A stretch of DNA of 64,000 nt, taken from the NCBI GenBank assembly GCA_947084965.1, contig CAMTUG010000001.1, forward strand, positions 211,914-275,913. Reading direction: 5' to 3'. Below the pieces are notes generated by a model. It was not told the origin of the DNA. It saw only the letters and a list, made by a program, of their open reading frames with translations, and made no database searches. Source of the stretch: an uncultured Parcubacteria group bacterium (GTDB lineage Bacteria; Patescibacteriota; Patescibacteriia; UBA9934; CAMTUG01). The position numbers and the translations under genes were made by a program. This document shows positions 12,651 through 62,338 of this stretch, piece by piece (within the stretch, counting starts at the first letter, position 1; the number at the start of each line of letters is the position of its first letter).

Positions 12651-12694
12651 TGTCCGAGGTCCGGAGAGCGAGTGGCGCGCTCCGGACCGTCTGA

Positions 12695-13528: not shown

Positions 13529-13589
13529 GGCTACCTCGGGGTTAAGGGTTTGCACATGAAAGCATTTTTTCAAATGAACGTCAATGATT

Positions 13590-13647
13590 ATTGACAATTC
13601 GCTTATTTTCGTGTTAAAGAACCGTTGGCACATTCACGGAGGTCTAG
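13590..13647 (+). promoter_or_regulatory. AT-rich divergent promoter region with TTGACA box and GGAGGT SD for the kinase gene
   Basis: TTGACA at 13592-13597. GGAGGT sits 6 nt before the ATG at 13648. This is the only AT-rich stretch inside the high-GC island. Confidence 0.35.
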
Positions 13648-15366: not shown

Positions 15367-15373
15367 CTCAACG

Positions 15374-15400
15374 CCCTCCTCGGTACTCGAGGGGGGCGCT
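15374..15400 (+). terminator. GC-rich hairpin after kinase gene (GCCCTCCTCGgtacTCGAGGGGGGC)
   Basis: Read directly from the sequence. The T-run is weak. Confidence 0.4.
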
Positions 15401-37087: not shown

Positions 37088-38893
37088 TTAGCCGTTGTTG
37101 GATTTTTTGCGTTGCGTGGCGTCCAAAATTGCTTTACGAATGCGCAAAGATTTTGGTGTTACTTCAAGGAGCTCGTCTTCGCCCAAGTATTCGAGCGACG
37201 TTTCGAGCGTCATCTGGCGCGGGACATCAAGCCCGGCGGACGGGCCGTCACCCTTGGAGCGCATGTTGGAGAGTTTCTTTTCTTTGCACGGGTTGACTTC
37301 CAGGTCCTCGCCCTTGTTGTTTTCACCGATGACCATCCCAGCGTAGACCTCGGTACCAGGTCCGACGAACATCACCCCGCGTTCCTGCAGGTTGGCGAGG
37401 GAATAGCCCATCGTTTCTCCGTTTTCCATCGAAATCAAGGAACCGTGCGGGTTAGTGGCGATCTCCCCGATCTCTGGGCGGTAGCCCAACAGAAGGGTGT
37501 TCAAAATCCCTTGGCCTTTGGTGTCGGTCATAAACTCTGTGCGGTAGCCGATCAACCCACGGGTTGGAATGTCGAATTCCATGAAGGTCGTGCCGTTCTC
37601 AACTTTCATATCCTTCATTTCGCCTTTGCGGCGACCCATCTTTTCAATCACCACCCCACCGAATCCTTCTGGGCATTCAATCGAAACAGCTTCGAACGGT
37701 TCGTTTTCGACTCCGTCGATCGTGCGGTAGATGACTTTCGGACGCGAGACTTGGAATTCGTATCCTTCGCGGCGCATCTTTTCAATCAAAATGGCGAGGT
37801 GTAATTCACCGCGGCCGCTGACATGGAACGTCCCTTCGCCTTCGCCAGCGAGAATTTTCAAAGCGACGTCATTTTGGAGTTCACGTTCCAGACGTTCTTT
37901 GATGTTGCGGGCAGTAGAAAACTCACCTTCACGCCCAGCGAACGGGGAGGTGTTGACCGAGAAAGTCATTTTGACCGTCGGTTCTTCAATATGCATGACC
38001 GGAAGGGCGACGGGGTTGGCAGCATCCGCAATCGTTTCACCGATCGTCACATCTTCAATACCAGAAAGCAAAACAACTTCGCCCGCTTCGGCCGATGCGA
38101 CCTCCTTTTTATTCAATCCTTCAAAGACCTGAAGGGCGGTGATGCGGGCAGATTTCATCTTTCCGTCGCGGTCGATGTGCATCACGTTCATCCCGACTTT
38201 GGCCACGCCGTTGACCACGCGACCGATCGCCGAGCGGCCCTTGTAGTTATCATACAAGACGTTGATGACCGAAAACTGGAACGGCTTTGCGGCGTCGCCG
38301 GTCGGGAGCGGAATGTGTTCTACAACCGCGTCCAAGAGCGGGGCGATATCTTTCATTGATTCCATTTTCGGTTCTGGACCGGCCACACCGTTGATCGCCG
38401 AAGCGTAAACAACGGGGAAGTTCGCCTGCTCTTCGGACGCCCCGAGGTCAATAAAGAGATCGAATGTCTTGTTTAAAACCCAGTCCGGTCGAGCTGCCGG
38501 CTTGTCGATCTTGTTGATCACCAAAATGATTTTGTGTCCGGCTTCGATCGCCTTTTTGAGTACAAACTTGGTTTGCGGCATCGGCCCTTCCTTGGCGTCA
38601 ACCAACAGGAGACAGCCGTCAACCAAATTCATGATGCGTTCAACTTCGCCGCCGAAGTCGGCGTGGCCAGGGGTGTCGACGATGTTGATTTTGACGTTGT
38701 TCCAATTGATCGAACAGTTCTTGGCCAAAATGGTAATCCCGCGTTCGCGTTCCAGCTCGTTGCTGTCCATGATGGTGGTACCCATCGCGTCGGCGTTGCG
38801 GAAGGTGTTCGATTGTTTAAGCAAAGCATCCACGAGCGTCGTTTTGCCGTGGTCAACGTGAGCGATAATAGCGATATTGCGGATGTCTTGCAT
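37088..38893 (-). CDS. typA: translational GTPase TypA/BipA
   Basis: MQDIRNIAIIAHVDHGKTTLVDALL, DTPGHADFGGEVER, NKIDK. Collinear with E. coli BipA over the full length. Start at the ATG of MQDIRN (38893). Confidence 0.9.
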   Translation of the reverse strand: MQDIRNIAIIAHVDHGKTTLVDALLKQSNTFRNADAMGTTIMDSNELERERGITILAKNCSINWNNVKINIVDTPGHADFGGEVERIMNLVDGCLLLVDAKEGPMPQTKFVLKKAIEAGHKIILVINKIDKPAARPDWVLNKTFDLFIDLGASEEQANFPVVYASAINGVAGPEPKMESMKDIAPLLDAVVEHIPLPTGDAAKPFQFSVINVLYDNYKGRSAIGRVVNGVAKVGMNVMHIDRDGKMKSARITALQVFEGLNKKEVASAEAGEVVLLSGIEDVTIGETIADAANPVALPVMHIEEPTVKMTFSVNTSPFAGREGEFSTARNIKERLERELQNDVALKILAGEGEGTFHVSGRGELHLAILIEKMRREGYEFQVSRPKVIYRTIDGVENEPFEAVSIECPEGFGGVVIEKMGRRKGEMKDMKVENGTTFMEFDIPTRGLIGYRTEFMTDTKGQGILNTLLLGYRPEIGEIATNPHGSLISMENGETMGYSLANLQERGVMFVGPGTEVYAGMVIGENNKGEDLEVNPCKEKKLSNMRSKGDGPSAGLDVPRQMTLETSLEYLGEDELLEVTPKSLRIRKAILDATQRKKSNNG

Positions 38894-38968
38894 AAATCTG
38901 GGTAAACCTATTAACGGGCGGATTATGCCCCGAAAGTGGCGTCTTGTCAACGATTGGCCTAGAATAAA

Positions 38969-39493
38969 ATGATTATGGCTGATCTCTTGTCCCTCTTTCT
39001 GATCGTTTTGTTGGTTTCCCTAGCCGTTGCTGCTCTTTCTTTTGCGCCGTGGGTGCCGGTGCCGAAAAAGGAATTGCGGCGCATTCTCGGGCTTGCTGAG
39101 CTCAAGACAGGAGAGGTCTTTTATGATTTGGGATGCGGTGATGGGCGAGTCGTTTTTGCGGCGGCCGAGATCCCGGGAGTACAGGCGGTTGGTATTGAAC
39201 TCGCATTACCGATGTATCTTGTCTGTCGGATTAAACAGGTCGTTTGGCCTGAGGCACGACGGGCGAAGATCCGGTTAGCGAACTTTTTTCGTGTCGATCT
39301 TCAGCATGCGGACGTCATCTATCTGTTCGGTGTGCCGCGGACTTTGCGTACACGATTGACGAACAAGCTCAAAGCCGAGTGCAAGCCAGGGACCCGCGTC
39401 CTGTCTTATGCGTTTCCTGTTGACGGGTGGTCATCGATGGCTGAAGACGTTCATCCACAGAGCGGTGTAACGATTTATCGCTACGTGTTATGA
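38969..39493 (+). CDS. class I SAM-dependent methyltransferase with N-terminal TM helix
   Basis: Motif I VFYDLGCGDGRVVF. Alternative ATG at 38975. Confidence 0.6.
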   Translation: MIMADLLSLFLIVLLVSLAVAALSFAPWVPVPKKELRRILGLAELKTGEVFYDLGCGDGRVVFAAAEIPGVQAVGIELALPMYLVCRIKQVVWPEARRAKIRLANFFRVDLQHADVIYLFGVPRTLRTRLTNKLKAECKPGTRVLSYAFPVDGWSSMAEDVHPQSGVTIYRYVL

Positions 39494-39524
39494 TGAAACT
39501 ATTAACCCTTAATGTTCCTTCGTT

Positions 39525-39737
39525 ATGATGCATGAGAAGATGTGCGGCGTGCACAAGATCGGTGCCGCCCTTGTGGTTGTCGGTGCGATTAACTGGGGCC
39601 TGATCGGACTCCTTCAGTGGAATCTGGTCGAGGCAGTGCTCGGAACGGGGACCGTGACCCGCGTCGTGTACATCCTTGTCGGTTTGGCGGGCATCGCCAT
39701 GCTCGGGATGTGTAAGTGTTCGGGATGTAAAAAGTAA
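39525..39737 (+). CDS. DUF378-family small membrane protein
   Basis: 70 aa. KIGAALVVVGAINWGLIGLL...VVYILVGLAGIAML pattern typical of DUF378. Confidence 0.65.
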   Translation: MMHEKMCGVHKIGAALVVVGAINWGLIGLLQWNLVEAVLGTGTVTRVVYILVGLAGIAMLGMCKCSGCKK

Positions 39738-39740
39738 GGA

Positions 39741-39762
39741 AACGATCTTCGGATCGTTTTTT
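39741..39762 (+). terminator. intrinsic terminator AAACGATCttcgGATCGTTTTTT
   Basis: 8-bp stem, tetraloop, and a U6 tail. Confidence 0.7.
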
Positions 39763-39836
39763 GATAAAGGCGGGCTTTCGGGCTCGCTTTTGGTTTAACG
39801 GCAGCGCCCCCAGGGAGTGTCCCTGAGGGCGTGGCG

Positions 39837-40445
39837 TTAGCCGAGAGCGGAGAGGATGATCCAGCGGATGTCGTCCGCGGATTCGATCTCTCGTTCGGGA
39901 GGGCAGCGGAGTGTCAGAACGCGATCGTCGGGCGTGAAGAGTCGTCGGATCCCGCAGAGCTCGCGGCGGTCGAGCATCTCAGAGACGGGGTCTTCGACGA
40001 CCCCGCGCGTCTTGTTGCTGGCGTGGATCACCGTTCCTTCGCCGGTTGCGAAGACGACATGTCCGATCCCTTGGTTTGGGTCGGACTCGTAGCGGTTGAT
40101 CCATCCTTTGGTGAACAGAAGGTCGCCCATGATCGGCGGTTGATCTGGCTCGATCCCTTGGCCGAAGCGGAACTGCTGGATCGCTCGGCGCGGCAGATCG
40201 ATTCCGCGGTGACGGTAGAGCCACTTCATCAGGCTCGAGCAGTCGAAGACGCTCGGGGCCTCGCGAAGACGCGCGCCGCGGCGGTAGGTCGAGCCGATGG
40301 CGCTCCGTGCAGTGGCGAGGAGGTCGACGTCGATGACCTCGAAGCCACGTTCCGCGAGGATGTTGATCGCTTCGTCATCTGTCATCGGCAAGTGCATCTG
40401 TCGAACGCTCACCGCCTGGCGGTTGCCGTGTCCTCGAAAGTCCAT
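39837..40445 (-). CDS. NlpC/P60 (C40) family cell-wall peptidase, high GC
   Basis: FDCSSLMKWLY (catalytic Cys) and IGHVVFATGEGTVIHAS (His). GAGGT SD before MDFRG. About 66% GC. Own terminator hairpin at 39775-39833 on the minus strand. Confidence 0.65.
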   Translation of the reverse strand: MDFRGHGNRQAVSVRQMHLPMTDDEAINILAERGFEVIDVDLLATARSAIGSTYRRGARLREAPSVFDCSSLMKWLYRHRGIDLPRRAIQQFRFGQGIEPDQPPIMGDLLFTKGWINRYESDPNQGIGHVVFATGEGTVIHASNKTRGVVEDPVSEMLDRRELCGIRRLFTPDDRVLTLRCPPEREIESADDIRWIILSALG

Positions 40446-40531
40446 GTCATACCTCGGTGGGCGCATTCAAACATAGATGAACAGATAAATCCATGTGCAG
40501 GTTCAGGTCCCAAACCGTGTCTGCGGGACTA

Positions 40532-40639
40532 CTCAAAAAATAATTTCCGCAAAGTGGAAGTACACAGGGTTTATTTTATACTAAGCTTAGTAAAAATTGA
40601 GGTCTATGTACTTCCACTTTGCGGAAATCTATTTTTGAG
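40532..40639. repeat. MITE-like element: 33-bp terminal inverted repeats (CTCAAAAAATAATTTCCGCAAAGTGGAAGTACA / TGTACTTCCACTTTGCGGAAATCTATTTTTGAG) around a 42-bp AT-rich core
   Basis: Arms match 31/33. Outer flanks GTTCAGGT...ACCTGTCAAC are also partly complementary. Lies between two minus-strand genes. Confidence 0.55.
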
Positions 40640-40736
40640 TACCTGTCAACCTGACGAGCTTACCTTAAAGAAGACGCGAATCATCGACTCGCATGGTGAA
40701 GCATTCGGCTTCGATCAGGTCATTTACAGGACCTGA

Positions 40737-42758
40737 TTACCGGATAAACGTAAACACGGTTGTGGCGCCGTTTGAAAGAGAGATCCAGTGGTCGGCTTCG
40801 CGTTTAGCGTTTTCGATGACTTTGTCAGACATCCACCAATAGTCGTTGACGACGAAGTAGGCGGTGTCGACGTCGGCCAGATTCATCGCTGCTTCAGCGC
40901 GTTCTCGGGTCGGGCCAATGTTGACCATTTCGAGATACAGTTGATAGAGCGGTCCACCGGTCGGGATCGGGTAGTAAAAGATATCGCCCTCGGAATATTT
41001 TAAAAATCCATATTCTTGCACGGCCGCGGCACTCACGGCCTGGTTGGCAAGAACAACGTAGTCGATGGTACTCGTATCAGAGAGCCCATGAATGTAGCGC
41101 ACCGTTTCGAAATCAGATTGCCCGACGTTAAATCCACGGCTGATCTCGTAATTATCATGACGCGGGTAGGTCATGTACACACTAGCGGTCAGGATCATGG
41201 CGGTGAGAAGAGTGAAACCGAAGCGGAGCGGAGCTGGTTTTTCTTTCAGAACTTCGAAGATGCGTCCGACCACGATTCCCAGAATTGGCAAGAGCATGAA
41301 CTGCATCATCTCGAAGATGCGCGCGCTGTAATTGCTCCGTTCATAGTCGATCAAAAAGTCAAAACCGATCAGGGTGGAGAGAAGCAGATAGTTGATCAGC
41401 ATGATCGCTGGAGGAAAGAGGAAAGAGGAAAGAGGAAAGGCGGGGCCGCTGCGTCCCGCAATACGGCGAAGGATGATAATCCCAGCGATCGTGAGGGTGA
41501 GAAGAATCAAGATGCGATTCCATCCGAAGAGATATGCGGCATCAAGAAAGGGATGGAAGCGATTTTCGACAAAAAGGTGCAAGCCGAGGAGCTCCGTCCA
41601 TGGCGTGGTGAAGATATTTTTGAAAGAAAGGGTGACGTTGAGACCAGAGATCTTGGCGTTCAATAAAAAGATCGCAGGGAGTGAAATCGATCCGAGGCCA
41701 GCGGTCAGATAGCCCAGGCGTTTGTAATCGCGGGTGAACAGTTCAAGCAAAACGGCGTAGATGATGATTGGGATGCCAGCGAGTGGATGAGTAAAAACAG
41801 CGGCGACGGCGAAGATCCACAATGCGAGATGATCCTGGTTGGTGCGTTTTTCTTTTTTAAGCAGGGGGATCGAAACGAGAATGGCGGCGAGCGACCAGGT
41901 GTTGGCGAGAGCTTGCGGGGTGGTGGCGATGAACGACGAAAGGGGGAGGAGGAAGAGGACAAGAGCGCCGGATTTTAATGAGCGCCAAGCGAGGAGCGGA
42001 AGCAATAGCCCGGCGAGGAGGGGAACAAGGTAGCTGTCCGCCAGCGCCACCGGAATTGAAAATCCATGCGCGGCGATCAGGACAAGGGCGTATTGTCCGG
42101 CGTAGTAGAGCGGCTTGGGGGTAATGGTGCCGTGTTCGAGGATGTGTGATTCCGTCGCTTTATGGATGAAGGAATCAAATCCGTAGCCGAGCGGGTAGGA
42201 GAGAAGGGCGACCGAGATCGTAAGTAAGAAAAAGATGGTCAGGGTTAGGCGGGACGGTTTGCTTGCGAGCAAGAGGGCGAGGAAAAAGATTCCGATAAAA
42301 AAAGCTGTCGGAATGACGAGCCAGGGGGAGCGGACCGGTTCGATGATCTCCGTTCGTGTGAGGATGGAGGTGGTGGCAAGAATGATAAATAGGAAGAAAG
42401 TGGTAAGTGGTAAGTGGTAAGTGGAGGGGCGGGAGAGGAAAGAGGAAAGGCGGGGCCACCGTGTCCCGCCACTGGTCTGCATCGGTCGCCAGAAACAGAT
42501 GAGGGGGACAGCGATCACCACACCCGTTGCGAAGGGGAGAGTGAGCAGGTCGAGATAGTAAGCGATCCCTCCGAGAATGGAGAGGAGGGCGATCAGCTGT
42601 GCCGCACCGATAGGACTTCGGCCGTAAAACAGTAGCATCCCAGCAAGGAGCACGAGCCCCAACCACGTCGCCTGAAGAAAAAAGGCGTTGGCAACAAACA
42701 GGACTAGAAAAACAAGGGAAACGGTGATATATTTAAGAAGTGATCCTACCGATTGCAT
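40737..42758 (-). CDS. large polytopic membrane protein (>12 TM) with C-terminal extracytoplasmic domain, glycosyltransferase-like; start uncertain
   Basis: Long frame 40737..42812. Start chosen at MQSVGSLL to avoid overlapping the divergent gene. Carries two in-frame heptamer-repeat + GC-hairpin inserts (41409-41459, 42399-42470). Confidence 0.5.
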   Translation of the reverse strand: MQSVGSLLKYITVSLVFLVLFVANAFFLQATWLGLVLLAGMLLFYGRSPIGAAQLIALLSILGGIAYYLDLLTLPFATGVVIAVPLICFWRPMQTSGGTRWPRLSSFLSRPSTYHLPLTTFFLFIILATTSILTRTEIIEPVRSPWLVIPTAFFIGIFFLALLLASKPSRLTLTIFFLLTISVALLSYPLGYGFDSFIHKATESHILEHGTITPKPLYYAGQYALVLIAAHGFSIPVALADSYLVPLLAGLLLPLLAWRSLKSGALVLFLLPLSSFIATTPQALANTWSLAAILVSIPLLKKEKRTNQDHLALWIFAVAAVFTHPLAGIPIIIYAVLLELFTRDYKRLGYLTAGLGSISLPAIFLLNAKISGLNVTLSFKNIFTTPWTELLGLHLFVENRFHPFLDAAYLFGWNRILILLTLTIAGIIILRRIAGRSGPAFPLSSFLFPPAIMLINYLLLSTLIGFDFLIDYERSNYSARIFEMMQFMLLPILGIVVGRIFEVLKEKPAPLRFGFTLLTAMILTASVYMTYPRHDNYEISRGFNVGQSDFETVRYIHGLSDTSTIDYVVLANQAVSAAAVQEYGFLKYSEGDIFYYPIPTGGPLYQLYLEMVNIGPTRERAEAAMNLADVDTAYFVVNDYWWMSDKVIENAKREADHWISLSNGATTVFTFIR

Positions 42759-42779
42759 ACCGCCGTATTCTATCATGTT

Positions 42780-43355
42780 ATGGCTCGCGATCCATCGCTT
42801 CTCTACCCGCATGACCGTATTTTAGCGAAAACGGTTTTGCCACTCATCCCTCGCGTCGTGACACCGAATCATGTCACGATCTTTCGCTACGGCACGATCC
42901 CCTTCATCATCTATTTTTTGTTCAACGAGAATTATCTGATCGGATTGCCGCTCTTTGTTTTTTCTGCCTGCACGGACGCGATCGACGGCTCACTTGCACG
43001 TACGCGTAAAATGATCACTCGCTGGGGGACGTTTTATGACCCGGTCGCTGATAAACTGCTGATCATGAGCACGATCCTCCTCCTTGTGTTTCGTTTTCTC
43101 CCACCGTGGTTTGCGGCGGTGATCGTCCTGCTTGAATTGCTGATCGGCATTGGCGGTTATGTCTATCGTAAGGAAGGCAAGATGCAGAGCGCTAACGTCT
43201 TCGGGAAGTGGAAGATGTTCGCTCAGAGTACTGGCGTGACCCTTATTTTGGCGGCGGCGGCGTTTGGGGCGCCATGGCTCATTCCGTACGCCATGGTTAC
43301 CCTTTCCGTGGCTATCGTGCTCGCGGTTATCTCGCTCTATACCTACGGCTTGTGA
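42780..43355 (+). CDS. CDP-alcohol phosphatidyltransferase family protein
   Basis: D-x2-DG-x2-AR-x8-G-x3-D-x3-D motif (TDAIDGSLARTRKMITRWGTFYDPVADK). Multi-TM. Start could be 42753 or 42780. Confidence 0.7.
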   Translation: MARDPSLLYPHDRILAKTVLPLIPRVVTPNHVTIFRYGTIPFIIYFLFNENYLIGLPLFVFSACTDAIDGSLARTRKMITRWGTFYDPVADKLLIMSTILLLVFRFLPPWFAAVIVLLELLIGIGGYVYRKEGKMQSANVFGKWKMFAQSTGVTLILAAAAFGAPWLIPYAMVTLSVAIVLAVISLYTYGL

Positions 43356-44899
43356 TCAAACCTCGTGCAGACTTTTTGATCCTCACGTTCGCCGCGCTCT
43401 TCTTTTTTGTGTCGAGTGGTATTTTGGCGTTCAACATGCCGGCCGTCTATAACTCGCCGGATGAAAATGCCAACGCCGTTTTTACAGAGCAGGTACGCCT
43501 GACCGGCACGCCGGACATCTTCGATCCGTTTCTCGCGCTGAGCCCGCTTTTGCATCCCCGTAGTGTGATTAACACCGGGCTGCATGTACTCCCAGGGAGT
43601 TTTCTCGGTCTGCCGTTTTATTACGGCTATCTCGCGCGTGCTACCGATGTTGAACTTTTGCGTTATTTCACCCCCTTGCTCGCCGTACTGGCGATTTTTT
43701 GCTGGCGTCGCATTGTTGAAGAGGTTTTTCGTTCCCGTACGGTGGCATTGGTCGCCGCTCTCGGGCTGATGTTTCACCCGGCGTTTTGGTATTGGAGCGC
43801 CAGGTCGATGATGCATAACGTTCCGTTCATCGCGCTCATGATCATCGCCCTGTATGTCGCCGTGGTTCGGCCGCGTTTCCTCTGGCTTTCAGGTCTTCTC
43901 TTCGGCACTGCGATCATGTTCCGCTCGGTAGAACTTTTTTGGATCATCCCGATCGTGTTTCTCCTCCTCGTTCGTTTTCAGCGTGAGCTTGGACTCGGAC
44001 GGATTATCGGATTTATGATCGGGGTGGCGATCGCTATCGCCCCGATGCTGGTGTTGAATCAACAGCTCTACGGCAACATGTTTGAAACGGGGTATACCTA
44101 TCATCAAACTTCTGATGCAGCGATCACGGCGAGTACACTGCCTGTCCCGAATGCGTCCTTTTTGGAATTGGGAAAATCTATCTTGCGAAACAGTTGGCAC
44201 TATTCCGTCACATTGTTTCCGTGGCTTTCCTTTGCCGCTGCTCTCGGATTTCTGACGCGCATACAGGAACGCCGTGAACGTCTTTTCGCCGTCGTGGCGG
44301 TACTGACCACCGCATTATTGTGGATCTTTTATGGGTCCTACACCTTCCGTGATAACCCTGATACCGATCTCATCACCATCGGCACGTCCTACACGCGCTA
44401 CTGGTTGCCGATCTTCGCTTTGGCCAGTCCGTACGTCGCCTGGCTGATCGTTTGGTTGAGTGATCGGGTACGGGTGGTCACAGCCAGGAAGATCGTCCTG
44501 GTGGGATTAACCGTTTTGATGATCACCCTTTCCATCCGCCCGGTGTTTCTGGCTGAAGACGGGTTGATCGGCGTTCGCGCGGCGCTCTTGGGATCGTACG
44601 AAAAGCAACAGCGCGTGCTGGCGGTCACTGAAGAAGAAGCGGTCATTATCGTCGATCGTGCGGATAAGTTCCTCTGGCCCGATCGTCACGTCGTCTATCC
44701 GCTTCGTTCTGAAGAAACGTATGCGGCCATGCCCAAGCTCGCCGCCGGCGCTCCGCTTTATTATTTCGGCATCACTTTGCCAGAAGGGGACCTCGTCTAT
44801 TTGAATACGGAAAAGCTCCCGCCGCTCGGCCTGCAGATTGAACACGTCGTGACGGTTGAGGATGAATCGCTCTACCACATCTATGAAGCGCTTCGTTAA
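43352..44899 (+). CDS. polytopic membrane protein, GT-C-fold glycosyltransferase-like (ArnT/PMT-like), GTG start overlapping upstream stop
   Basis: More than 10 TM helices. DE motif in the first extracytoplasmic loop (NSPDENANAVF). GTGA overlap with the upstream stop at 43352-43355. Confidence 0.5.
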   Translation: MIKPRADFLILTFAALFFFVSSGILAFNMPAVYNSPDENANAVFTEQVRLTGTPDIFDPFLALSPLLHPRSVINTGLHVLPGSFLGLPFYYGYLARATDVELLRYFTPLLAVLAIFCWRRIVEEVFRSRTVALVAALGLMFHPAFWYWSARSMMHNVPFIALMIIALYVAVVRPRFLWLSGLLFGTAIMFRSVELFWIIPIVFLLLVRFQRELGLGRIIGFMIGVAIAIAPMLVLNQQLYGNMFETGYTYHQTSDAAITASTLPVPNASFLELGKSILRNSWHYSVTLFPWLSFAAALGFLTRIQERRERLFAVVAVLTTALLWIFYGSYTFRDNPDTDLITIGTSYTRYWLPIFALASPYVAWLIVWLSDRVRVVTARKIVLVGLTVLMITLSIRPVFLAEDGLIGVRAALLGSYEKQQRVLAVTEEEAVIIVDRADKFLWPDRHVVYPLRSEETYAAMPKLAAGAPLYYFGITLPEGDLVYLNTEKLPPLGLQIEHVVTVEDESLYHIYEALR

Positions 44900-46325
44900 G
44901 CTATTGGCCGCTGCCCTTATCATCACCGCACCGATCGCTCTTTTCGTTTGGCTCTTTTTGAAAGATCTCACTCCGAGCGGCGTCTTAACGATCAACCACT
45001 CCGTGACCGATGCATCGCCGTTCATCGATCGGTTTTTGCCGGACACGCGGGCGATCAACGGGGAGGTGATCGTCGACGAACCGGTGTACGCGGCGGTGCA
45101 TCTGCCCGGAGACTTTGAAACGGTGACGGTTGATCTGTTTTACGAAAACGCCTATCAGCCGATCGTTCAAGTCGGATTTTTAGCGAGCGAGGATCCGCTG
45201 CAATATGTGTTGGAGCCGTTACAAAACTTGTTGATCGACCGTTCAGAATGGGATCGAATCGACGCAGGGGGTCTCGTCCTTCTCCAGCGCTACAAAGTGT
45301 TCGAATCGATCGATACCTTTCTGGCCGACCCACCGTTGCGTGGCACGATCGCTACCTTTAACACCTCGCTTACGACCCCGTACCGTATCCCTGATTACTA
45401 CCCAACGAATACCTTGCAGACGATCGATACTTCACTGCGCGGGTATCATGAATTTTTGACCTACGTCAAAAACGAACCGCTTCTCGTTCAGGCCGAGTTC
45501 CAGGATATGAATCGCGATTTTGGCGAAGATCCAGTTGAACTTCTGGTCTTTAACGAGGAGAACGATCTCGTCGGGTCTCAGTCAACGTTGGATGATGGGG
45601 TCATCGAGGCAACCGCTAAGGGCAGCACATTACGCTCAACGACGGTCGTCTTGAATGATCTTCCGGAAGGGGTTTATAAAGTGATTCTCAAAGCTCCGCG
45701 AGATATTTTTTTTCGTAAGATCATGAGCCGTCAGCGTTACCTGACATTCGTCGGCCCGATCTTTTTCGGTGACGATGTCGGCTATCGCGATGATATTCGC
45801 CCGGTTGATTACTTCACCGATGCCAAGCACGTCAGTTTTTTCACCTATCATGCCGATGCTGCACAAAAGGTAACGATAGGTGCGTCTGAAGTGCGATTGC
45901 CGGAAGCGCAGGTACGGTATGATCACGACGTGACCGAGGCGGGGCTCGTTGCGGTGCACGCTCCGGCCTCTGACTTCACTTTTACCCATGACGGCAAGGT
46001 TGCCTTTCGGGCCGATCAGTTTTTCAACCCCGATCCGGTCAACCTGAGCTGGAACACTGATCTCGACGCGCTTGGTGTGAATTTTGTTCTGGCGGATTAC
46101 ACCTCGCCGCCCACCGAAGAGGGAATTGTTCATGCCCAGGCGACCTTTGATCTGCAGGAGGTGATGACCAAGGATGGGGAGGTAAAGCTCGTTCTTTCGG
46201 CGCCAGGGATCAGGTCCCTGCAGCAACAGCTGACCTTGCGTGATCTGCAATTAACGTTTGAACGACCTCAGATGTCTGGAGCTGACATCTGGAACAAGCT
46301 CAGAGAATTTCTCACCTTCTTATGA
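44883..46325 (+). CDS. hypothetical membrane-anchored extracytoplasmic protein (480 aa)
   Basis: N-terminal TM helix (LLAAALIITAPIALFVWLFL). Overlaps the upstream gene end. Confidence 0.5.
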   Translation: MKRFVKLLAAALIITAPIALFVWLFLKDLTPSGVLTINHSVTDASPFIDRFLPDTRAINGEVIVDEPVYAAVHLPGDFETVTVDLFYENAYQPIVQVGFLASEDPLQYVLEPLQNLLIDRSEWDRIDAGGLVLLQRYKVFESIDTFLADPPLRGTIATFNTSLTTPYRIPDYYPTNTLQTIDTSLRGYHEFLTYVKNEPLLVQAEFQDMNRDFGEDPVELLVFNEENDLVGSQSTLDDGVIEATAKGSTLRSTTVVLNDLPEGVYKVILKAPRDIFFRKIMSRQRYLTFVGPIFFGDDVGYRDDIRPVDYFTDAKHVSFFTYHADAAQKVTIGASEVRLPEAQVRYDHDVTEAGLVAVHAPASDFTFTHDGKVAFRADQFFNPDPVNLSWNTDLDALGVNFVLADYTSPPTEEGIVHAQATFDLQEVMTKDGEVKLVLSAPGIRSLQQQLTLRDLQLTFERPQMSGADIWNKLREFLTFL

Positions 46326-46642
46326 ATCTCGCGCGTCTCGGCTATTGCGTCTCGTTTTTCTCCTACCTGTTTTTTCTGATGCTTGAATATCTGCGTCCGG
46401 GTTTTGTTTCCAATTATCTTTCCGTGCACCTCTTTCTGATCCCCGCAATCATCTTCGGGATCCTTTGGGCGCGCAAAAGCCCATCCTATCCTTTTTCCTC
46501 TTTCCTTTTTCCTCTTTCCATTTCCATCCTCTTCTCCGTATTTACTTGGCGTGAAGGACGGGCTTTTGAGGATTATCGGGTGCTGATGACCTTGGTCGCC
46601 TTTTTCCTCCCGATGCTCGTCTGGAGACAAGTCCAGAAATGA
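46322..46642 (+). CDS. small membrane protein (106 aa) containing heptamer-repeat-encoded segment
   Basis: ATGA overlap with the upstream stop. 46467-46527 carries a GC hairpin + (CTTTCCT-like)n tract that encodes KSPSYPFSSFLFPLSIS. Confidence 0.45.
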   Translation: MNLARLGYCVSFFSYLFFLMLEYLRPGFVSNYLSVHLFLIPAIIFGILWARKSPSYPFSSFLFPLSISILFSVFTWREGRAFEDYRVLMTLVAFFLPMLVWRQVQK

Positions 46643-46726
46643 TTTGACAGGTCCTCAAGGACTGGTATCCTTAATGCGTTATGATGATGCATCGCACAAC
46701 AACGTCGACGACCACGACCCCTTAGC

Positions 46727-46772
46727 GCGAGGGCCATCTTGTTGTGTGGCGGCCCTCGGGGCCGTTTTTGTT
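46727..46772 (+). terminator. GC-rich hairpin(s) + T-run (GAGGGCC...GGCCCTC / GGCCCtcgGGGCC + GTTTTTG)
   Basis: Alternative overlapping stems also include CACAACAAC...GTTGTTGTG (46694-46747). Lies between the 46322 gene and the HAD gene. Confidence 0.45.
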
Positions 46773-46782
46773 TATCAAGCCT

Positions 46783-47430
46783 ATGACCAATTACAAACAG
46801 ATTTTCTTTGACTTTGACAGTACCCTCGTCCGTGTCGAGACTCTGGATCAACTCGCTTCTGATCCCGTGAAGCGAGCAGAGGTTGAAGCTCTGACCAACG
46901 CGAGCATGAACGGGGATCTCTCCTTTGCCGAGGTGTTTCCGAAGAAGATGGCGATTCTTGCTCCGTCGATCGGTGACTTAGAAGCGCTTGCTCAGCGTTG
47001 TATGGATGAGTGGCTTGTCGCTGGGGTACGCGAAGCGATTGAGCGCATTCAGGCGAACGGAGGGGAGGTCTGGATGATCACCGCCAATTTTCATCCGCTC
47101 GTTGATCCCGTTGCTGAGCATCTCGGCATCCCATCTGAACGCGTGCTGGCCAACACGATCTGCTTTGATGAAGAGGGGAACTATCTTCGTTGCGAAGCGT
47201 CGGTATTGATGGGCGATGGCGGAAAGGCGGTGGCGATGCGGCCGTGGGTTCGTAACCGTGAGGAGGCGGTGATGATCGGGGACAGTGTCAGTGATCTGGC
47301 GTGCGCAAGTGAGGTCGGACTTTTTGTCGGGTTCGGAGGCGTGGTTGTCCGGCCTGCGGTCCAACATGCGGCATCGGTTTTTGTTGAAGAACCCAACATG
47401 CTGGCCGTCCTTCGTCATCTTTATCCTTAA
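46783..47430 (+). CDS. HAD-superfamily hydrolase, phosphoserine-phosphatase-like (subfamily IB)
   Basis: FFDFDSTL (DxDxT), later MIGDSVSD. About 215 aa. Confidence 0.65.
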   Translation: MTNYKQIFFDFDSTLVRVETLDQLASDPVKRAEVEALTNASMNGDLSFAEVFPKKMAILAPSIGDLEALAQRCMDEWLVAGVREAIERIQANGGEVWMITANFHPLVDPVAEHLGIPSERVLANTICFDEEGNYLRCEASVLMGDGGKAVAMRPWVRNREEAVMIGDSVSDLACASEVGLFVGFGGVVVRPAVQHAASVFVEEPNMLAVLRHLYP

Positions 47431-47493
47431 GGGTTTTCCTCTGCCGTTGTCGTCCTGATGACGGTAGTCTGAACTCTTGAGGAGGAATGACCG

Positions 47494-48834
47494 ATGTCCG
47501 AAGCCATCGACTTTCACAGCCCGCTCCCGTACCGTCGCGCTGACATGAGCGCCTACTGCCGCCAGAAGGGGGTCACGCTCATCGAGCATCCGTCGGTCGA
47601 TTGTTCGGCTCTCGGTTCGAGCGATTCCGCTGTGCCGCGGGGGATCGATCCGTTCGCCTGGGCGCACTTCTGGTGGCCGCGGCTGCACGCCGCCGCTCTC
47701 GGGGATCTCGGAGCGCTCTGTGCCACGCGCTTCCCGGGGGAGATCCTTCCCGGACCGGGCGGCCACGGGGCGACCTGTGTCACGGAGCGCCTGGCCTACG
47801 GGCGGTACCAGAGCTTCCGGAGCGACCAGCGCCTGCTGCCATCCGTGCCGGCGTTCGCGCGCCGCAAGGTCGGCGCGATCGCCGACTGGCCCTGGGGAGA
47901 AATTCGGGAACCCCAGCTCGAAGAGGTCGTCTTCAATCTCGATCCATCGAACGCGACCGACAAGCCGTTCGACGTCGACGGGATCACCTGCGATCCCGAG
48001 GGGATCCGCGTGATCAGCCGTCTGTGGTGCCCGGGGAAGGAACATCTGTGGAGCCGGCAGGAAGAGACGATCGAGCGTTTCCTGAGCTTGCTTCCTGAGC
48101 CCGTCCGTCCGGCGGTCCTCGCCTTCGAAGTCGAAGAGTGCCTGGCGCACGCTTACGAAGCACGTGAGTGGAACGGCCACGGGCACGGGATGTGCAACGG
48201 GGTCTGGCTCGAAGTCGGCCTGGCAGCGATCGAGAAGATCCGCCCGACCGAGCTCGCCGTCACCGCGCGCATCGCGGCTGAACTCATCACCCTGACGGAG
48301 TCCGGGTTCGCCCCGATCGTGGTCAACGAGTGGGGGTGTGACACCGACGGCACCCACCGCCTGATGGCCGCCTGGATCTTCAACCTCTGCCGCGACCTCG
48401 ATCCGTCCGTTCTCGCGAACCTGGACGTCGGTTGTCGCTTGGTTCACGTGAAGGAGCGGCTTCGTCTCTGGCTCGACGCGCGGATCGCTCCGTTCGTCCG
48501 CCCGCGGCCGCTGATCGTCCGTGAAGCTCTGCGCTTCCTTGCCGAAGCGATCCGTGATCCCGACCTCCTCGCCACGCTGATCGAGGTCGTCCGTCGCGCC
48601 AAGCACGCTCCGCCCGTGGCTCGACTGCCTGTGACCTTCCTGCGTGAAGCAAGTTGGGGAACGGTGGTCAAAGGACCGTACGACAGCGGGGAAGCGATCA
48701 TCCGGGTCGATCCGCGGATCTACGCCGAACTGGCGGATCACCCGCATCTGGTCCTGCCGCCGCGCGGGCCTTACCACATGACCGACGAGCTCGAGATGCT
48801 CTGGTTCGACGTCTTGCGCATCAACGCGACCTAG
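47494..48834 (+). CDS. hypothetical protein (446 aa), high GC
   Basis: GGAGGA SD. About 67% GC. No recognisable motif. Own terminator. Confidence 0.5.
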   Translation: MSEAIDFHSPLPYRRADMSAYCRQKGVTLIEHPSVDCSALGSSDSAVPRGIDPFAWAHFWWPRLHAAALGDLGALCATRFPGEILPGPGGHGATCVTERLAYGRYQSFRSDQRLLPSVPAFARRKVGAIADWPWGEIREPQLEEVVFNLDPSNATDKPFDVDGITCDPEGIRVISRLWCPGKEHLWSRQEETIERFLSLLPEPVRPAVLAFEVEECLAHAYEAREWNGHGHGMCNGVWLEVGLAAIEKIRPTELAVTARIAAELITLTESGFAPIVVNEWGCDTDGTHRLMAAWIFNLCRDLDPSVLANLDVGCRLVHVKERLRLWLDARIAPFVRPRPLIVREALRFLAEAIRDPDLLATLIEVVRRAKHAPPVARLPVTFLREASWGTVVKGPYDSGEAIIRVDPRIYAELADHPHLVLPPRGPYHMTDELEMLWFDVLRINAT

Positions 48835-48859
48835 CCGCTCGTTCGCGTGACTTCTTGTC

Positions 48860-48897
48860 CGGCCCGCCAGTACGTGGCGGGCCGCTGACATTTTTTT
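48860..48897 (+). terminator. intrinsic terminator CGGCCCGCCAgtacgTGGCGGGCCG + T7
   Basis: 10-bp perfect stem. The CCAGTACGTGG core is shared with the hairpin at 50849-50871. Confidence 0.65.
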
Positions 48898-48951
48898 AAG
48901 GGATTGTTGTATACTAGTCGTGAGCATCATTGATTCATTACAGGAGATTCT

Positions 48952-49359
48952 ATGCCCGTCGATTGTCTGTTTTGTAAAATTATCGCCGGCGAGATCCCGT
49001 CGCACACGATTTACGAGGACGAAAAGACCGTGGCTTTTTTGGATATTCTCCCGGTAAGCGTCGGGCATACGCTCGTCGTTCCCAAAGCGCATAGCGAGAA
49101 TTTACTCGAAGCCGATCCAGAGGATGCTAACGCTGTCCTTGCCACTATGCAAAAAATTGCGCCCGTTCTTCGTGTGGCGCTTGAAGCAGATGGAATGAAC
49201 GTGGGGATCAATTGCGGCGAAGCGGCCGGACAGGTCGTCTTTCACACCCATGTCCACATGATGCCGCGTGTTGCTGGAACCCCGCGATCGTTTGAGCACA
49301 AGAGTGTCTCGCAGGAAGAATTAGCCGCGACTGCCGAAAAGATCCGCGCCAAGATGTAA
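48952..49359 (+). CDS. HIT-family (histidine triad) nucleotide hydrolase
   Basis: HTHVHMMPR histidine triad. AGGAGA SD. Confidence 0.8.
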   Translation: MPVDCLFCKIIAGEIPSHTIYEDEKTVAFLDILPVSVGHTLVVPKAHSENLLEADPEDANAVLATMQKIAPVLRVALEADGMNVGINCGEAAGQVVFHTHVHMMPRVAGTPRSFEHKSVSQEELAATAEKIRAKM

Positions 49360-49360
49360 T

Positions 49361-49903
49361 ATGGCACTCAAAGTAAAACGTTGGAAACAAGTTGCGGTCA
49401 AAACGCTCGGGAAGAACGCCTACTTTGATTATGTGTTGGAAACGTATCTGCTGCCGAATGGCAAGCTAGTGGAGTATTACGCCGTTCGCAAATCACATGC
49501 GGCTACCATGGTCGGGGTGCTTGATGACGGCCGGGTGATCCTCGTCAAACAGTATCGTGCCCTGTTCGATAAGGTCAGTTTAGAAATTCCGGGCGGTGGG
49601 GGCGGAAAACGCGAACGACCAAAGACGATCGCTCGCCGCGAATTTGAAGAAGAGACCGGATATTATGCCGGCTCGGTCCAAGAGATCGGCACCTGGGCCA
49701 CGGACAACAGTTTAATGGACGAGGTGATTCACACTTTTTTGCTGACCAATTTGAAAAAGGGGAAGAAGATGTACGATGGGGTAGAAGAGACCGATCTTGT
49801 CCTCATGACTCCCAAGGAGATCGACCGGGCTATCGCCAACGGTACCATCTGGCACGGCCAATCGATCGCGTCCTGGCACCTGGCCAAGCCGCATTTGTCT
49901 TAA
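49361..49903 (+). CDS. NUDIX hydrolase (ADP-ribose pyrophosphatase-like)
   Basis: Nudix box GGGGGKRERPKTIARREFEEETG. Confidence 0.8.
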   Translation: MALKVKRWKQVAVKTLGKNAYFDYVLETYLLPNGKLVEYYAVRKSHAATMVGVLDDGRVILVKQYRALFDKVSLEIPGGGGGKRERPKTIARREFEEETGYYAGSVQEIGTWATDNSLMDEVIHTFLLTNLKKGKKMYDGVEETDLVLMTPKEIDRAIANGTIWHGQSIASWHLAKPHLS

Positions 49904-50037
49904 ACAATCAGAAGGTCAGCCGATTGACAGGTCGGTTGATTTTTTGTATTGTCTTTTCTTCTTCGGCAGGAGCCGGAGGAGATTCAGGCACCGTACTTGG
50001 TGCATCACCACCCCGCAGGAGCGGGAACGGAGCAGAG

Positions 50038-50826
50038 ATGAACGGCAATCTGATGGTCGACAAAGGTCGTGAACGTGAAGACGGCATCCAGGACCGCGAA
50101 GAGCGGCTGGTCGCGGTCAACGCCCTGCTCGCAGAGCGGCACCTGAAGCCGCGCGGCAAGCTCGGGCTCGCCAGCGAGAACGAGCAGGAGATCCTCGGGA
50201 TCTACCACATCGACGACCGCACGCCGCAGTTCCACACCACCATCTACTACGCCGTCCTTCTGAAGGACGGCCGGGTGATCGAGCTCCCGGTGCGCTACAA
50301 CGCCAACGGGGACAAGTGCGACGGGGTCGTCTTCGTCATCCTCCTGAACGGCACGCACCTGGTGCTCGTCAAGGAGTGGCGTCACAGCCTCGCCGAGTGG
50401 GTGACTGGCATCCCGCGCGGCTTCACCGAGCTCGAGGACGTGATGCAGATGCCCCAGGGCGGCCCGATCGGCAACCCGGCCGACCTCAAGATCCCGGCGC
50501 TGCGCGTCCTCTTCCGTGAGCTCGGCGAGGAGGTCGGCGATCCCTCGACGCTCGCCCTGACGCAGATCGCCTTCCTCGGCAAGGTCTACCAGAACACCGG
50601 GACCGACTCGGCCGCCCCGGACTACGTCCTCCTCTCCCTCCGCGGCCCGACGAACTTCAAGTCGACGCCCAAGGACCCGGACCACAAGGTCCGCGTCTGG
50701 AGCGTGGAGCAGGTCCGCGAGGCGATCGGCGGGGAGCTGAACGACAGCCATACGCTCACCGCGCTGGTCCTCCTCGAGCGGTTCGCTCGTTCGCTCTCCG
50801 GAGCGCCTGCGGGCCGCTTCCTGTAG
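50038..50826 (+). CDS. NUDIX-like hydrolase, high GC
   Basis: GIPRGFTELEDVMQMPQGGPIGNPADLKIPALRVLFRELGEEVG (Nudix-box-like RELGEEVG). GGAGCAGAG SD. About 66% GC. Confidence 0.5.
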   Translation: MNGNLMVDKGREREDGIQDREERLVAVNALLAERHLKPRGKLGLASENEQEILGIYHIDDRTPQFHTTIYYAVLLKDGRVIELPVRYNANGDKCDGVVFVILLNGTHLVLVKEWRHSLAEWVTGIPRGFTELEDVMQMPQGGPIGNPADLKIPALRVLFRELGEEVGDPSTLALTQIAFLGKVYQNTGTDSAAPDYVLLSLRGPTNFKSTPKDPDHKVRVWSVEQVREAIGGELNDSHTLTALVLLERFARSLSGAPAGRFL

Positions 50827-50848
50827 GGTCCCCGACCCTGTCGCTTCC

Positions 50849-50885
50849 GCCGGTCCAGTACGTGGGCCGGCGTTGCGTTTTCTGC
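50849..50885 (+). terminator. terminator hairpin GCCGGTCCAgtacgTGGGCCGGC + T-rich tail
   Basis: Stem with one G-U pair. Shares the CCAGTACGTGG core with 48860-48884. Confidence 0.55.
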
Positions 50886-50940
50886 ACTGATAAACAAGGC
50901 GATTGACGGGGCAAAAGCTCCATACTAAGATGCCACTGCT

Positions 50941-51960
50941 ATGAAATTGCTGGTCACAGGTGGTTGCGGGTTTATTGGGTCGCATTTTATCCGGGTCGTT
51001 CTCACCGAACGCCCAGATTGGGATGTGATCAATTTGGATGCGTTGACCTACGCCGGCAATCTCACCACGACGATGGATATCCAAACCCATCCGCGGTATC
51101 GATTTGTTTACGGTTCGGTCACTAATCGTGAGTTAGTCGAAAAGTTAGTGGCTGAAGTTGATGCGGTTGTGCACATCGCTGCCGAAACACACGTTGATCG
51201 GTCGATCGTCGACGTGGAGCCGTTCATCATGACCAACATTTTAGGGACCCAGCGTTTGATCGATGCCTGCAGAAAACATGGCAAGCGCTTGCATCATGTT
51301 TCTACCGATGAAGTGTTTGGTTCGCTCGGTCCAAACGATCCAAAGTTTACCGAATCCACACCATACGATCCGCGCAATCCTTATTCCGCCACCAAGGCGG
51401 CGGCTGATCACTTGGTGCGTGCCGCGGTGCATACGCACGCCTGCAAAGCGACGATCAGTAACTGCACCAACAACTACGGACCGTTTTTGTATCCAGAAAA
51501 GTTTTTGTCTATTGCGATTACTAATATTCTCGAAGGCAAGCCGGTGGTGATTCACGGCGATGGCGCGCAGAAGCGCGACTGGATCCACGTGCAAGATCAT
51601 GCTCGTGGTATTTTGGCGATTCTCGAGCGCGGACGGATCGGCGAGACGTACATGATGGGCGGCGGAACAGATGTTTCTGTTGCGGAAACGGCGCGGCTTC
51701 TTTTGCTCGTGATGGGTCATCATGAAAACATGCTGGTCTATCTGCATGATCGTCAAGGACAAGATCGTCGCTATGCGATCGATCACAGCAAGATTGAGCG
51801 CGAGCTTGGTTGGCGTCCGAGCGTTACCTTAGAGCAAGGATTGAATGAGATGGTTGAGTGGTATCGCAAGAATCATGATTGGTGGAAGCCGATCAAGGAA
51901 AGCGCCGGGTATCGACAGTGGTACCAGCATCAGGTCGAGGGGGCGAAAAATCAACTCTAG
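50941..51960 (+). CDS. rfbB: dTDP-glucose 4,6-dehydratase
   Basis: MKLLVTGGCGFIGSHF, YAGN, DEVFG, YSATKAAADHL (YxxxK) motifs. 339 aa. Confidence 0.85.
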   Translation: MKLLVTGGCGFIGSHFIRVVLTERPDWDVINLDALTYAGNLTTTMDIQTHPRYRFVYGSVTNRELVEKLVAEVDAVVHIAAETHVDRSIVDVEPFIMTNILGTQRLIDACRKHGKRLHHVSTDEVFGSLGPNDPKFTESTPYDPRNPYSATKAAADHLVRAAVHTHACKATISNCTNNYGPFLYPEKFLSIAITNILEGKPVVIHGDGAQKRDWIHVQDHARGILAILERGRIGETYMMGGGTDVSVAETARLLLLVMGHHENMLVYLHDRQGQDRRYAIDHSKIERELGWRPSVTLEQGLNEMVEWYRKNHDWWKPIKESAGYRQWYQHQVEGAKNQL

Positions 51961-51967
51961 TGCGCGT

Positions 51968-52810
51968 ATGAAAATTTTGATCATCGGTCGCGGATACATG
52001 GGAGAGAGGATTCATGCCGCTTGGCCAGATTCGATTTTGTCAGATGCCATGATTGCGGATAAAGCATCGATGCTGGCGGAACTTCGTAAGCACGAGCCGG
52101 ATGTAGTCTTGAACGCCGCGGGGGTGCGCGGCCGCCCCAACGTGGATTGGTGCGATGACAATCAACTGGAGACGATTCGGGGAAACACCTTGCTCCCCAT
52201 CATCATGGCCGATGCTTGTGCGGAAGCCGGTGTCTATCTGCTGCACATGGGTTCAGGGTGCATTTTTTACGGTCCGTCTCAGCACCCAGATCACGCCTGG
52301 CGCGAAGAGGATTTTGGGAATCCCAAGCCGACCTATTCGCGTTCCAAGTACGCCGCTGACCTTGTCCTTTCAACCTTGCCTAACGTGGGGATCGCCCGCA
52401 TCCGTATGCCTATCGACCACATTCCTTCACCAGGGAATCTGATCGACAAGCTTTCTTCTTTTGCCAAAGTGGCCGATGTGGAAAACAGTGTGACGATCGT
52501 CGATGATATGATCGATGTTTTTCATCAACTGTTGGAAAAGCGTGCTCAAGGGATTTTTCATGTGGTCAATCCTGGGACGCTCAAGTTTCGTGATCTGATC
52601 GCGTTGTACGAAGAGTTGGTCGACCCAACACACACCTGCGAGTGGGTCAGTGACGACGCCTTAAACGCCGCAGGGATCAACAAAAAACCGCGCTCCAATA
52701 ATTTCCTTTCCTCGGAACGATTGAAAGAAGCGGGGATCACCGTTCGTCCGGTTGCTGTGGCTTTGCGCGACACGATGCAAAAGTACGCAGAAGCAAAAAA
52801 AAAGATGTGA
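51968..52810 (+). CDS. NAD-dependent sugar-nucleotide epimerase/reductase, RmlD (dTDP-4-dehydrorhamnose reductase)-like
   Basis: MKILIIGRGYMG N-terminus and YSRSKYAAD (YxxxK). About 280 aa. Confidence 0.55.
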   Translation: MKILIIGRGYMGERIHAAWPDSILSDAMIADKASMLAELRKHEPDVVLNAAGVRGRPNVDWCDDNQLETIRGNTLLPIIMADACAEAGVYLLHMGSGCIFYGPSQHPDHAWREEDFGNPKPTYSRSKYAADLVLSTLPNVGIARIRMPIDHIPSPGNLIDKLSSFAKVADVENSVTIVDDMIDVFHQLLEKRAQGIFHVVNPGTLKFRDLIALYEELVDPTHTCEWVSDDALNAAGINKKPRSNNFLSSERLKEAGITVRPVAVALRDTMQKYAEAKKKM

Positions 52811-62225: not shown

Positions 62226-62252
62226 CAAGAAGCAGTAAGTGGTAATTGGTAA

Positions 62253-62288
62253 GTAGAGATGCTCAGTGAGCGTCTCTACTTTCTTTTT
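62253..62288 (+). terminator. intrinsic terminator GTAGAGAtgctcagtgagcgTCTCTAC + TTTCTTTTT
   Basis: 7-bp stem with a nested inner stem. Preceded by GGTAAGT-like heptamer repeats (62239-62256). Confidence 0.6.
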
Positions 62289-62338
62289 ACTGCTTACCAC
62301 TTTCCAAAGACCTTAGATTTTGATACGATCGTACCGAT

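Follow-up and report, generated by a model that had tools for sequence, protein, structure and literature searches.

We describe here two look-alike DNA segments, each composed of tandem heptamers followed by a GC hairpin, that lie within one membrane-protein gene of an uncultured Parcubacteria group bacterium (contig CAMTUG010000001.1). The window, which is the whole stretch of DNA that was analysed, comprises 64 kb of this ~476-kb contig and all coordinates are given relative to it. We lean, with moderate confidence, towards the view that the two copies are neighbouring members of a family of dispersed heptamer repeats that resembles the short tandemly repeated repetitive (STRR) sequences of cyanobacteria, in which the tolerance of protein loops would act as a filter and ectopic gene conversion would keep the copies alike, and that they are not a new jumping element. 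The units of the window are (AGGAAAG)n alongside (GGTAAGT)n. A first-pass annotation of the stretch had reported the two segments, and their layout is as it described, with both copies contained in an intact open reading frame (ORF; Table 1).

A repeat finder delimited a 36-nt unit common to 41424-41459 and 42434-42469, made of (AGGAAAG)2 and GCGGGGC-N6-GTCCCGC and identical at 33 of its 36 positions. The GC segments taken separately match at 18 of 21 positions, which corrects an earlier count of 18/22. Each of the three differences is a transition located in the 6-nt hairpin loop. The stem GCGGGGC/GTCCCGC has 7 pairs, the sixth of which is G-T (G-U) on the + strand and is replaced by an A.C mismatch on the coding strand. 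Tandem Repeats Finder detected period 7 at 100% match in arrays starting at 10181, 41411, 42398 and 42434. The exact hairpin pattern occurs in the window in just these two places, and with up to 3 mismatches 4 occurrences were found against 1.03 expected, which is background. When up to 2 mismatches are allowed, the window has 14 occurrences of the 14-mer AGGAAAGAGGAAAG against 0.37 expected. Sites 1 and 2 have 22 nt of non-repeat flank in common, and this flank appears to be the most direct trace of copying in the sequence.

Table 1. Host gene, the two composite copies and related heptamer arrays in the window.
Feature	Position	Strand	Unit or sequence	Encoded product or residues	Setting
Host gene	40737-42812	minus		691 aa; 679 aa from alternative start 42776	polytopic membrane protein with C-terminal soluble domain
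GC hairpin 1	41440-41459		GCGGGGCCGCTGCGTCCCGC = GCGGGGC-CGCTGC-GTCCCGC	AGRSGPA, residues 452-458	directly abuts site 1 array; predicted loop between transmembrane (TM) helices
Site 1 array	41412-41439		(AGGAAAG)x4; CTTTCCT on coding strand	AFPLSSFLFP, residues 458-467	predicted start of a TM helix
GC hairpin 2	42450-42470		GCGGGGCCACCGTGTCCCGC(C) = GCGGGGC-CACCGT-GTCCCGC(C)	GGTRWPR, residues 115-121	frame differs from hairpin 1
Site 2 array	42436-42449		(AGGAAAG)x2	LSSFL, residues 122-126	
Site 2 G-rich linker	42425-42435		GAGGGGCGGGAG		alternative stem possible with 3' arm of hairpin 2 (fold of 42390-42485, + strand)
Site 2 second heptamer family	42398-42424		(AAGTGGT)x3.9, equivalent to GGTAAGT	STYHLPLTTF, residues 130-139	
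tpiA array	10181-10210	+	(AGGAAAG)x4.3	RKEERGKRKE	gene 9800-10564
holB-like array	4207-4234	+	degenerate (GGAAAGA)x4	WKEERGESKE	DNA polymerase III delta' / clamp-loader gene (Pfam DNA_pol3_delta2)
Third array of the same family	46489-46523	gene +	TCCTTTT/TCCTCTT x5	PFSSFLFPLS	inter-helix (TM) loop in a membrane protein of 106 aa, gene 46322-46642
Intergenic palindrome after rpmA	62231-62304		GGTAAGT-type arms		terminator-like; -38.7 kcal/mol, z -7.7

At site 1 the shared core GGCCCCGCCTTTCCTCTTTCCTC begins in codon phase 0 and yields GPAFPLSSFL; at site 2 it begins in phase 1 and yields WPRLSSFLSR. With one DNA sequence translated in two phases, the repeat is one of nucleotides and not a peptide duplication. 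The similar coding-strand peptides pointed out in the first-pass annotation do exist, as the common LSSFL attests, but they are a by-product of heptamer periodicity, since such an array gives the same 7-aa cycle in every frame.

Both copies lie in loops that are hypervariable in an alignment of 21 sequences. Counted from a conserved RR to NY, the site-1 loop of the window protein measures 23 aa, that of the homologue P0004 28 aa and that of P0003 30 aa, against 15-19 in most others, and these three long loops belong to exactly the sequences that have pyrimidine-rich periodic DNA at this place. Compared with repeat-free orthologues the excess is 4-12 aa. One of these orthologues, P0005, reads K-R-A-G-R-S where the window protein has R-R-I-A-G-R-S, so that the A-G-R-encoding arm of hairpin 1 is native coding sequence. 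The longer site-1 loop of repeat-bearing genomes agrees with the earlier idea that the segments are insertions, and the A-G-R-S shared with a repeat-free protein speaks against it. At site 2 the loop, hypervariable in all sequences, has a length inside the range of the orthologues, and none of the orthologues in the alignment has GGTRWPR-like residues. Given A-G-R-S in P0005 and the lack of a GGTRWPR counterpart, site 1 would be the original context and donor and site 2 the recipient, so that copying would have run from site 1 to site 2. In an AlphaFold2 (AF2) model built from 21 sequences (pLDDT 85, pTM 0.88), hairpin 1 encodes a short inter-helix loop and array 1 the beginning of the next TM helix, whilst hairpin 2 and the arrays of site 2 fall into a low-confidence loop (residues 115-139, pLDDT ~47-53, below 50 at 113-119) that is presumably disordered.

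The heptamers are not confined to this gene. The window contains 11 exact period-7 repeats against 3.3 in shuffles, among them the three longest perfect arrays, and heptamer arrays are its outstanding class of tandem repeat. Five arrays of AGGAAAG type are spread over four genes and 64 kb, all of them inside ORFs and in frame. Single AGGAAAG heptamers are about as frequent outside arrays as inside and are inconspicuous in a ranking of 7-mers. The residues encoded by the tpiA array are homologous to SLEEREAGQT / STKERTSGKQKR and align with homologous residues of solved triosephosphate isomerases (TPIs) and of orthologues from the candidate phyla radiation (CPR; ..GESLEEREAGQT.., ..GESTKERTSGKQKR..), and the product is 2 aa shorter than both the solved TPIs and the CPR orthologues; the array is therefore a replacement and not an insertion. 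A tpiA orthologue of 65% identity has GAAAGAG inside a purine-rich stretch at the array position. The array of the holB-like gene is aligned to the Zn-module region of gamma/tau, likewise with no extra length. The array at 46489-46523 is in the same locus as the host gene, has the pyrimidine strand as its coding strand and is 96% complementary to site 1 over 26 nt. The arrays are sorted by strand: where the purine strand is coding (tpiA and the holB-like gene) the hosts are soluble proteins and the peptides rich in K/E/R/G, and where the pyrimidine strand is coding the hosts are the two membrane proteins and the peptides rich in F/L/S/P, for example FPLSSFLFP. The GGTAAGT unit is found both in site 2 and in the arms of the palindrome after rpmA, that is, one heptamer family also has a non-coding setting; site 2 and this palindrome have the heptamer arm and the general layout in common and align weakly. 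The GGTAAGT and TTCGWAT families have intergenic members too, unlike the AGGAAAG arrays. The purine/G-rich strand is the + strand in 6/7 of the AGGAAAG/GGTAAGT arrays, and the GC skew of the + strand is positive across the whole window; this strand may be the leading strand.

Families of this kind are known. Dispersed, species-specific heptamers are established in Xanthomonas (GGGAATC), in Nostoc PCC 7120 (GGGGAYT) and as the STRR of Calothrix, Anabaena and Nostoc, for which polymerase slippage has been proposed as the source and in which positions are conserved while sequence and length turn over (PMC4692102). The window repeats resemble STRR in their 7-nt head-to-tail units, with few copies per array at many loci and on both strands, and in a species-specific unit whose arrays are sometimes inverted repeats that form stem-loops (PMC4692102). 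A further likeness is that positions are common to relatives and the unit is specific to a lineage, as described below for TCCATTT/TCCAATC. They differ in that STRR are mainly intergenic, whereas all five AGGAAAG-type arrays are intragenic and in frame, and in that the unit here is purine-only and not G-quadruplex-forming and the host belongs to the CPR/Patescibacteria. A full-text literature search surfaced no report of such heptamer repeats in CPR/Patescibacteria.

On this basis we propose that arrays would arise and stay perfect by replication slippage and would enter or overwrite already similar sequence by homology-dependent copying, either ectopic gene conversion or template switching. 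They would persist only where the encoded peptide is tolerated: with the purine strand as coding strand this would be a K/E/R-rich peptide in a surface segment of a soluble protein, and with the pyrimidine strand an F/L/S/P-rich one at the boundary of a membrane helix. The GC hairpin would be the native loop-coding flank of array 1 rather than an element's core; it may have been co-copied along with two heptamer units into array 2, 1,010 bp away in the same gene, where it would have landed in the other frame and in a disordered loop. The composite would in that case be a product of intragenic co-conversion. No dedicated function would be needed; the repeats would expand or replace loops and would bring a latent danger of frameshift through slippage.

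The first-pass annotation had likened the composite to the in-frame, repeat-capped miniature insertions of a few other bacteria. A first alternative is accordingly a miniature mobile element, akin to Rickettsia palindromic elements (RPEs), MITEs or small dispersed repeats (SDRs), with a heptamer-capped hairpin core inserted twice in frame. We consider this unlikely. The SDRs of Nostoc, which that annotation probably had in mind, are reportedly hairpin-forming units of 21-27 nt, often nested in tandem heptamers, and are said to be near-identical and highly multicopy across the genome; the hairpin here has two copies and is partly native coding sequence. RPEs and intragenic MITEs offer a parallel in being repeated DNA that sits in frame in unrelated functional genes at fold-compatible positions, and in-frame selfish palindromic insertions are known from Rickettsia (PMC10969869). 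RPEs, however, are palindromes of ~100-150 bp present in tens of copies with a conserved peptide in one frame, whereas here we see tandem heptamers of 14-50 nt read in any frame, of which the sole palindromic piece has two copies and the tpiA member brings no net insertion. A mobile element would agree with DNA translated in two frames, with a conserved stem and a variable loop, with the longer site-1 loop and with the heptamer-armed palindromes elsewhere in the window (62231-62304, 3919-4048 and 6047-6559). Against it stand the confinement of both copies to 1 kb of one gene, the residues that the hairpin-1 arm shares with a repeat-free orthologue and the replacement in tpiA. Neither copy has visible terminal inverted repeats or a target-site duplication, and their flanks have nothing in common. 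A search of ~40 window ORFs turned up no reverse transcriptase, transposase or recombinase.

Searches for further copies of the composite gave nothing related in the window, the GTDB representatives, the JGI metagenomes or IMG/VR, with the source genome covered as far as the window reaches. Over 185,579 species-representative genomes of GTDB the pattern AAAGGCGGGGCC-N5-GTCCCGC matched 65 contigs, which we judged from their record titles: most are Alphaproteobacteria and other unrelated taxa, no title names Patescibacteria or Uhrbacteria, and the matches are probably terminator-like GC stems. The stricter pattern AGGAAAGGCGGGGCC-N5-GTCCCGC had no match in IMG/VR and one in the JGI metagenomes, a canonical terminator between convergent genes on an unrelated contig without tandem heptamers. 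As neither scan returned the two query sites, the source genome is evidently absent from the scanned collections and the scans are silent on its other 410 kb. We rejected a candidate third "hairpin + array" in the small membrane gene (46466-46523) since the conserved W-A-R-K-S encoded by its stem is present in an orthologue too. The first-pass annotation had taken the lack of further genomic copies, together with homologous residues in orthologues at both sites and no repeat in their DNA, as the outcome that would speak against an element. We found homologous residues at site 1 and no other hairpin copy; the heptamer arrays are nevertheless dispersed, and orthologues have repeats of their own in the same loops.

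Folding bears on the mobile element and on a second alternative. Neither copy on either strand was more stable than shuffles, with the exception of a short DNA fold of site 2. For + strand RNA the 7-pair stem is predicted, and contexts of 76-96 nt gave z -0.1 and -0.3 against dinucleotide shuffles. The isolated hairpins, folded as DNA, have energies between -6 and -8 kcal/mol; their z-scores lie between -0.5 and -0.7 for site 1 and are about -2 (-1.8 to -2.0) for site 2. On the sense-strand RNA, whose stem has the A.C mismatch, RNAfold predicts no such hairpin at either site. A scan for terminators and promoters called nothing at either site, and Rfam matched only four tRNAs in the window, with no match at the hairpins. 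These values argue against the hairpin and its polypurine/polypyrimidine tract being a functional nucleic-acid signal, whether an intragenic pause or attenuator acting in the sense RNA, a site bound by antisense RNA or by a protein, or a place where the inverted arrays at 41.4 and 46.5 kb recombine. Such a signal would explain a perfectly conserved stem with differences confined to the loop, the sense-strand order of a GC stem and then a U/C-rich tract, and the inverted repeats of 26 nt and 96% complementarity formed by the arrays of two divergent genes. The second lineage described below nonetheless has the GC hairpin at neither site, gene order is identical in the loci of all six relatives with no inversion seen, and we regard a signal of any of these kinds as very unlikely.

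To return to conversion between dispersed arrays, the loci of relatives provide its comparative context. We compared locus DNA of six relatives, in which L071 and the long-read contig L074 represent the locus of P0004 and L002 that of P0003. The protein of L071/L074 is 54% identical, and the same three loops of this locus have another heptamer-periodic repeat, TCCATTT/TCCAATC, with a compound unit of ~45 nt. Within this genome the copies reach 97% identity over 31 nt and 89% over 45 nt, and they have only words of 11-13 nt in common with the window repeats; here too the shared core is translated in two phases, 0 at one site and 1 at the other. The similarity within a genome thus exceeds that between orthologous sites, which is a signature of concerted evolution. 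L002 has decayed pyrimidine tracts in the same loops, and L070, L072 and L075 have no such repeats there. A GT2 glycosyltransferase gene of L002 (583-601) also contains an in-frame (AGTGGTT)x2.7 that encodes PLTTNHSAT and is one base off the AAGTGGT of the window.

Several observations weigh against the reading that we favour. The placement of all three differences in the loop has p ~0.003 over 36 nt and ~0.02 over the 20-nt hairpin by our own arithmetic; purely neutral copying would not predict it, and it may point to a constraint, or to a bias of mutation, connected with the stem. Either the stem could be constrained or the unpaired bases of the loop could be more mutable. A genome-wide hairpin family is conceivable, as the window is 64 of ~476 kb. 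In L071/L074 no further repeat copy occurs in 20.8 kb beyond the three loops. P0002, P0005 and P0006 lack the repeats, yet two lineages of ~54% identity have them in the same three loops. Such patchy presence would mean several losses or else gains that recurred at identical positions, and recurrent gains would speak for targeting or function; the neighbour-joining tree is compatible both with a single origin followed by losses and with repeated gains. Conversion as the copying mechanism is itself deduced from the pattern of similarity.

There is also a more far-reaching possibility, which we hold to be quite improbable: that heptamer repeats are kept or re-created at the same three loop positions of two divergently transcribed envelope-glycosylation genes in at least two Uhrbacteria-like lineages (~54% identity), homogenised in each genome, as substrates of a dedicated process that varies or switches surface glycosylation in episymbiotic CPR bacteria. 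The process would be homology-targeted copying or switching by slippage or inversion, and the conserved stem with its mutable loop would, in the same quite improbable case, be part of its recognition site.

The glycosylation gene invoked here is a prediction. No Pfam or NCBIfam family matched the host protein; it has 269 homologues, of which the named ones are from Ca. Uhrbacteria/Patescibacteria, and the nearest that is not the protein itself has 52-54% identity, none closer having been found. The best PDB matches of its AF2 model in Foldseek were STT3, PglB, DPY19 and ALG12 (probability 0.99-1.0 but low TM-scores of 0.26-0.36, E ~1e-3). The gene is flanked by a CDP-alcohol phosphatidyltransferase gene, further large membrane proteins, GT2s and dTDP-sugar enzymes. 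The locus looks like an envelope-glycan locus because of the phosphatidyltransferase, GT2 and dTDP-sugar neighbours, and the host protein is probably a GT-C-fold glycosyltransferase encoded in an envelope-glycan gene cluster. The contig of a second assembler (run ERR3478686) is base-for-base identical across 38841-52776, the arrays of this range included, and the 679-aa version of the protein is the same in both assemblies of the run. A near-perfect palindrome of 112 nt (40530-40641) lies ~95 nt downstream of the stop of the host gene, with an RNA fold of ~-60 kcal/mol and z -12 to -13.6, and has no second copy within the window.

The setting of the arrays raises the question of contingency loci, in which slipped-strand mispairing of 7-nt units would shift the frame and switch the GT-C-like enzyme, and with it the envelope glycan, ON and OFF. 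The precedent is neuO of E. coli K1, where tandem heptamers (5'-AAGACTC-3') are translated in the gene of a surface-glycan-modifying enzyme and the frame is kept only at certain copy numbers (PMC13001214). In accordance with this model three arrays cluster in the envelope-glycan locus, the unit length is not divisible by 3 and lies within coding sequence, arrays are perfect at 4 units, and repeats occupy these three loops in a second lineage as well. In neuO, however, slippage is documented for a single locus of 3-53 units (PMC13001214), whereas the arrays here are short (2-4 units), occupy several loci including the tpiA and holB-like housekeeping genes, which are presumably essential, and show no observed polymorphism. 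In the P0004 population (five full-length and two partial assemblies) the peptides encoded by the repeats, which are imperfect, are without length variation where covered. Two independent switches in one ORF would moreover yield mostly null alleles, and a switch of this type seems to us quite unlikely.

Selection could instead act on the protein, for a loop motif of the form (S/Y)-P-F-S followed by an F/L-rich stretch, with the DNA periodicity as a secondary effect. Motifs resembling P-F-S indeed occur at these loops in three genomes (SYPFSS, SPFSI, SPFSH, YPFSP). The common DNA is, however, read in different frames in both genomes; copies within a genome are near-identical as DNA, with few differences that are mostly non-synonymous, and the purine-strand versions in tpiA and the holB-like gene encode an unrelated peptide. 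We find selection of this kind highly improbable.

If dispersed heptamers homogenised by conversion are indeed the right description, the case reveals no new kind of mobile element; it is a known kind of repeat in a clade for which no reports surfaced. Dispersed heptamer repeats have long been noted in some bacterial genomes and have stayed unexplained, and the present case adds a reduced CPR genome in which arrays lie almost wholly within genes, including tpiA and that of a clamp-loader subunit. It provides unusually direct hints at the level of the sequence that arrays overwrite look-alike native sequence, are translated in whatever frame they land in, are sorted by strand between soluble and membrane hosts and are exchanged between nearby copies. 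These are of use for the question of how short repeats remodel protein loops, and also in annotation, where segments of this sort can pass for insertions or low-complexity artefacts.

Other features of the window deserve mention. An ORF of the PF05635 family (23S_rRNA_IVP / Avd-like four-helix bundle; 6151-6507) is bracketed by TTCGAAT/TTCGTAT inverted arms at 6047-6559, which span 51 nt and are 80% complementary. A copy of these arms without the ORF lies at 3919-4048, just upstream of holB, as a hairpin of z -3.1, and the pair looks like a small element and its miniature derivative. Two GC-rich islands (1-3400 and 11400-15400) have a GC content of 0.60-0.67 against 0.50-0.55 elsewhere. The first, whose junction near 3400 was confirmed by a second assembly, contains three hairpin-like repeats of 47 nt at 715, 1478 and 1907, and the second a caspase-like C14 peptidase and a Ser/Thr kinase beside tRNA-Thr. 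Finally, an ORF of 2,885 aa (19900-28557) with internal DNA repeats of ~670 nt and ~335 nt (families D1-D5 and D7) presumably encodes a giant repeat-domain surface protein.

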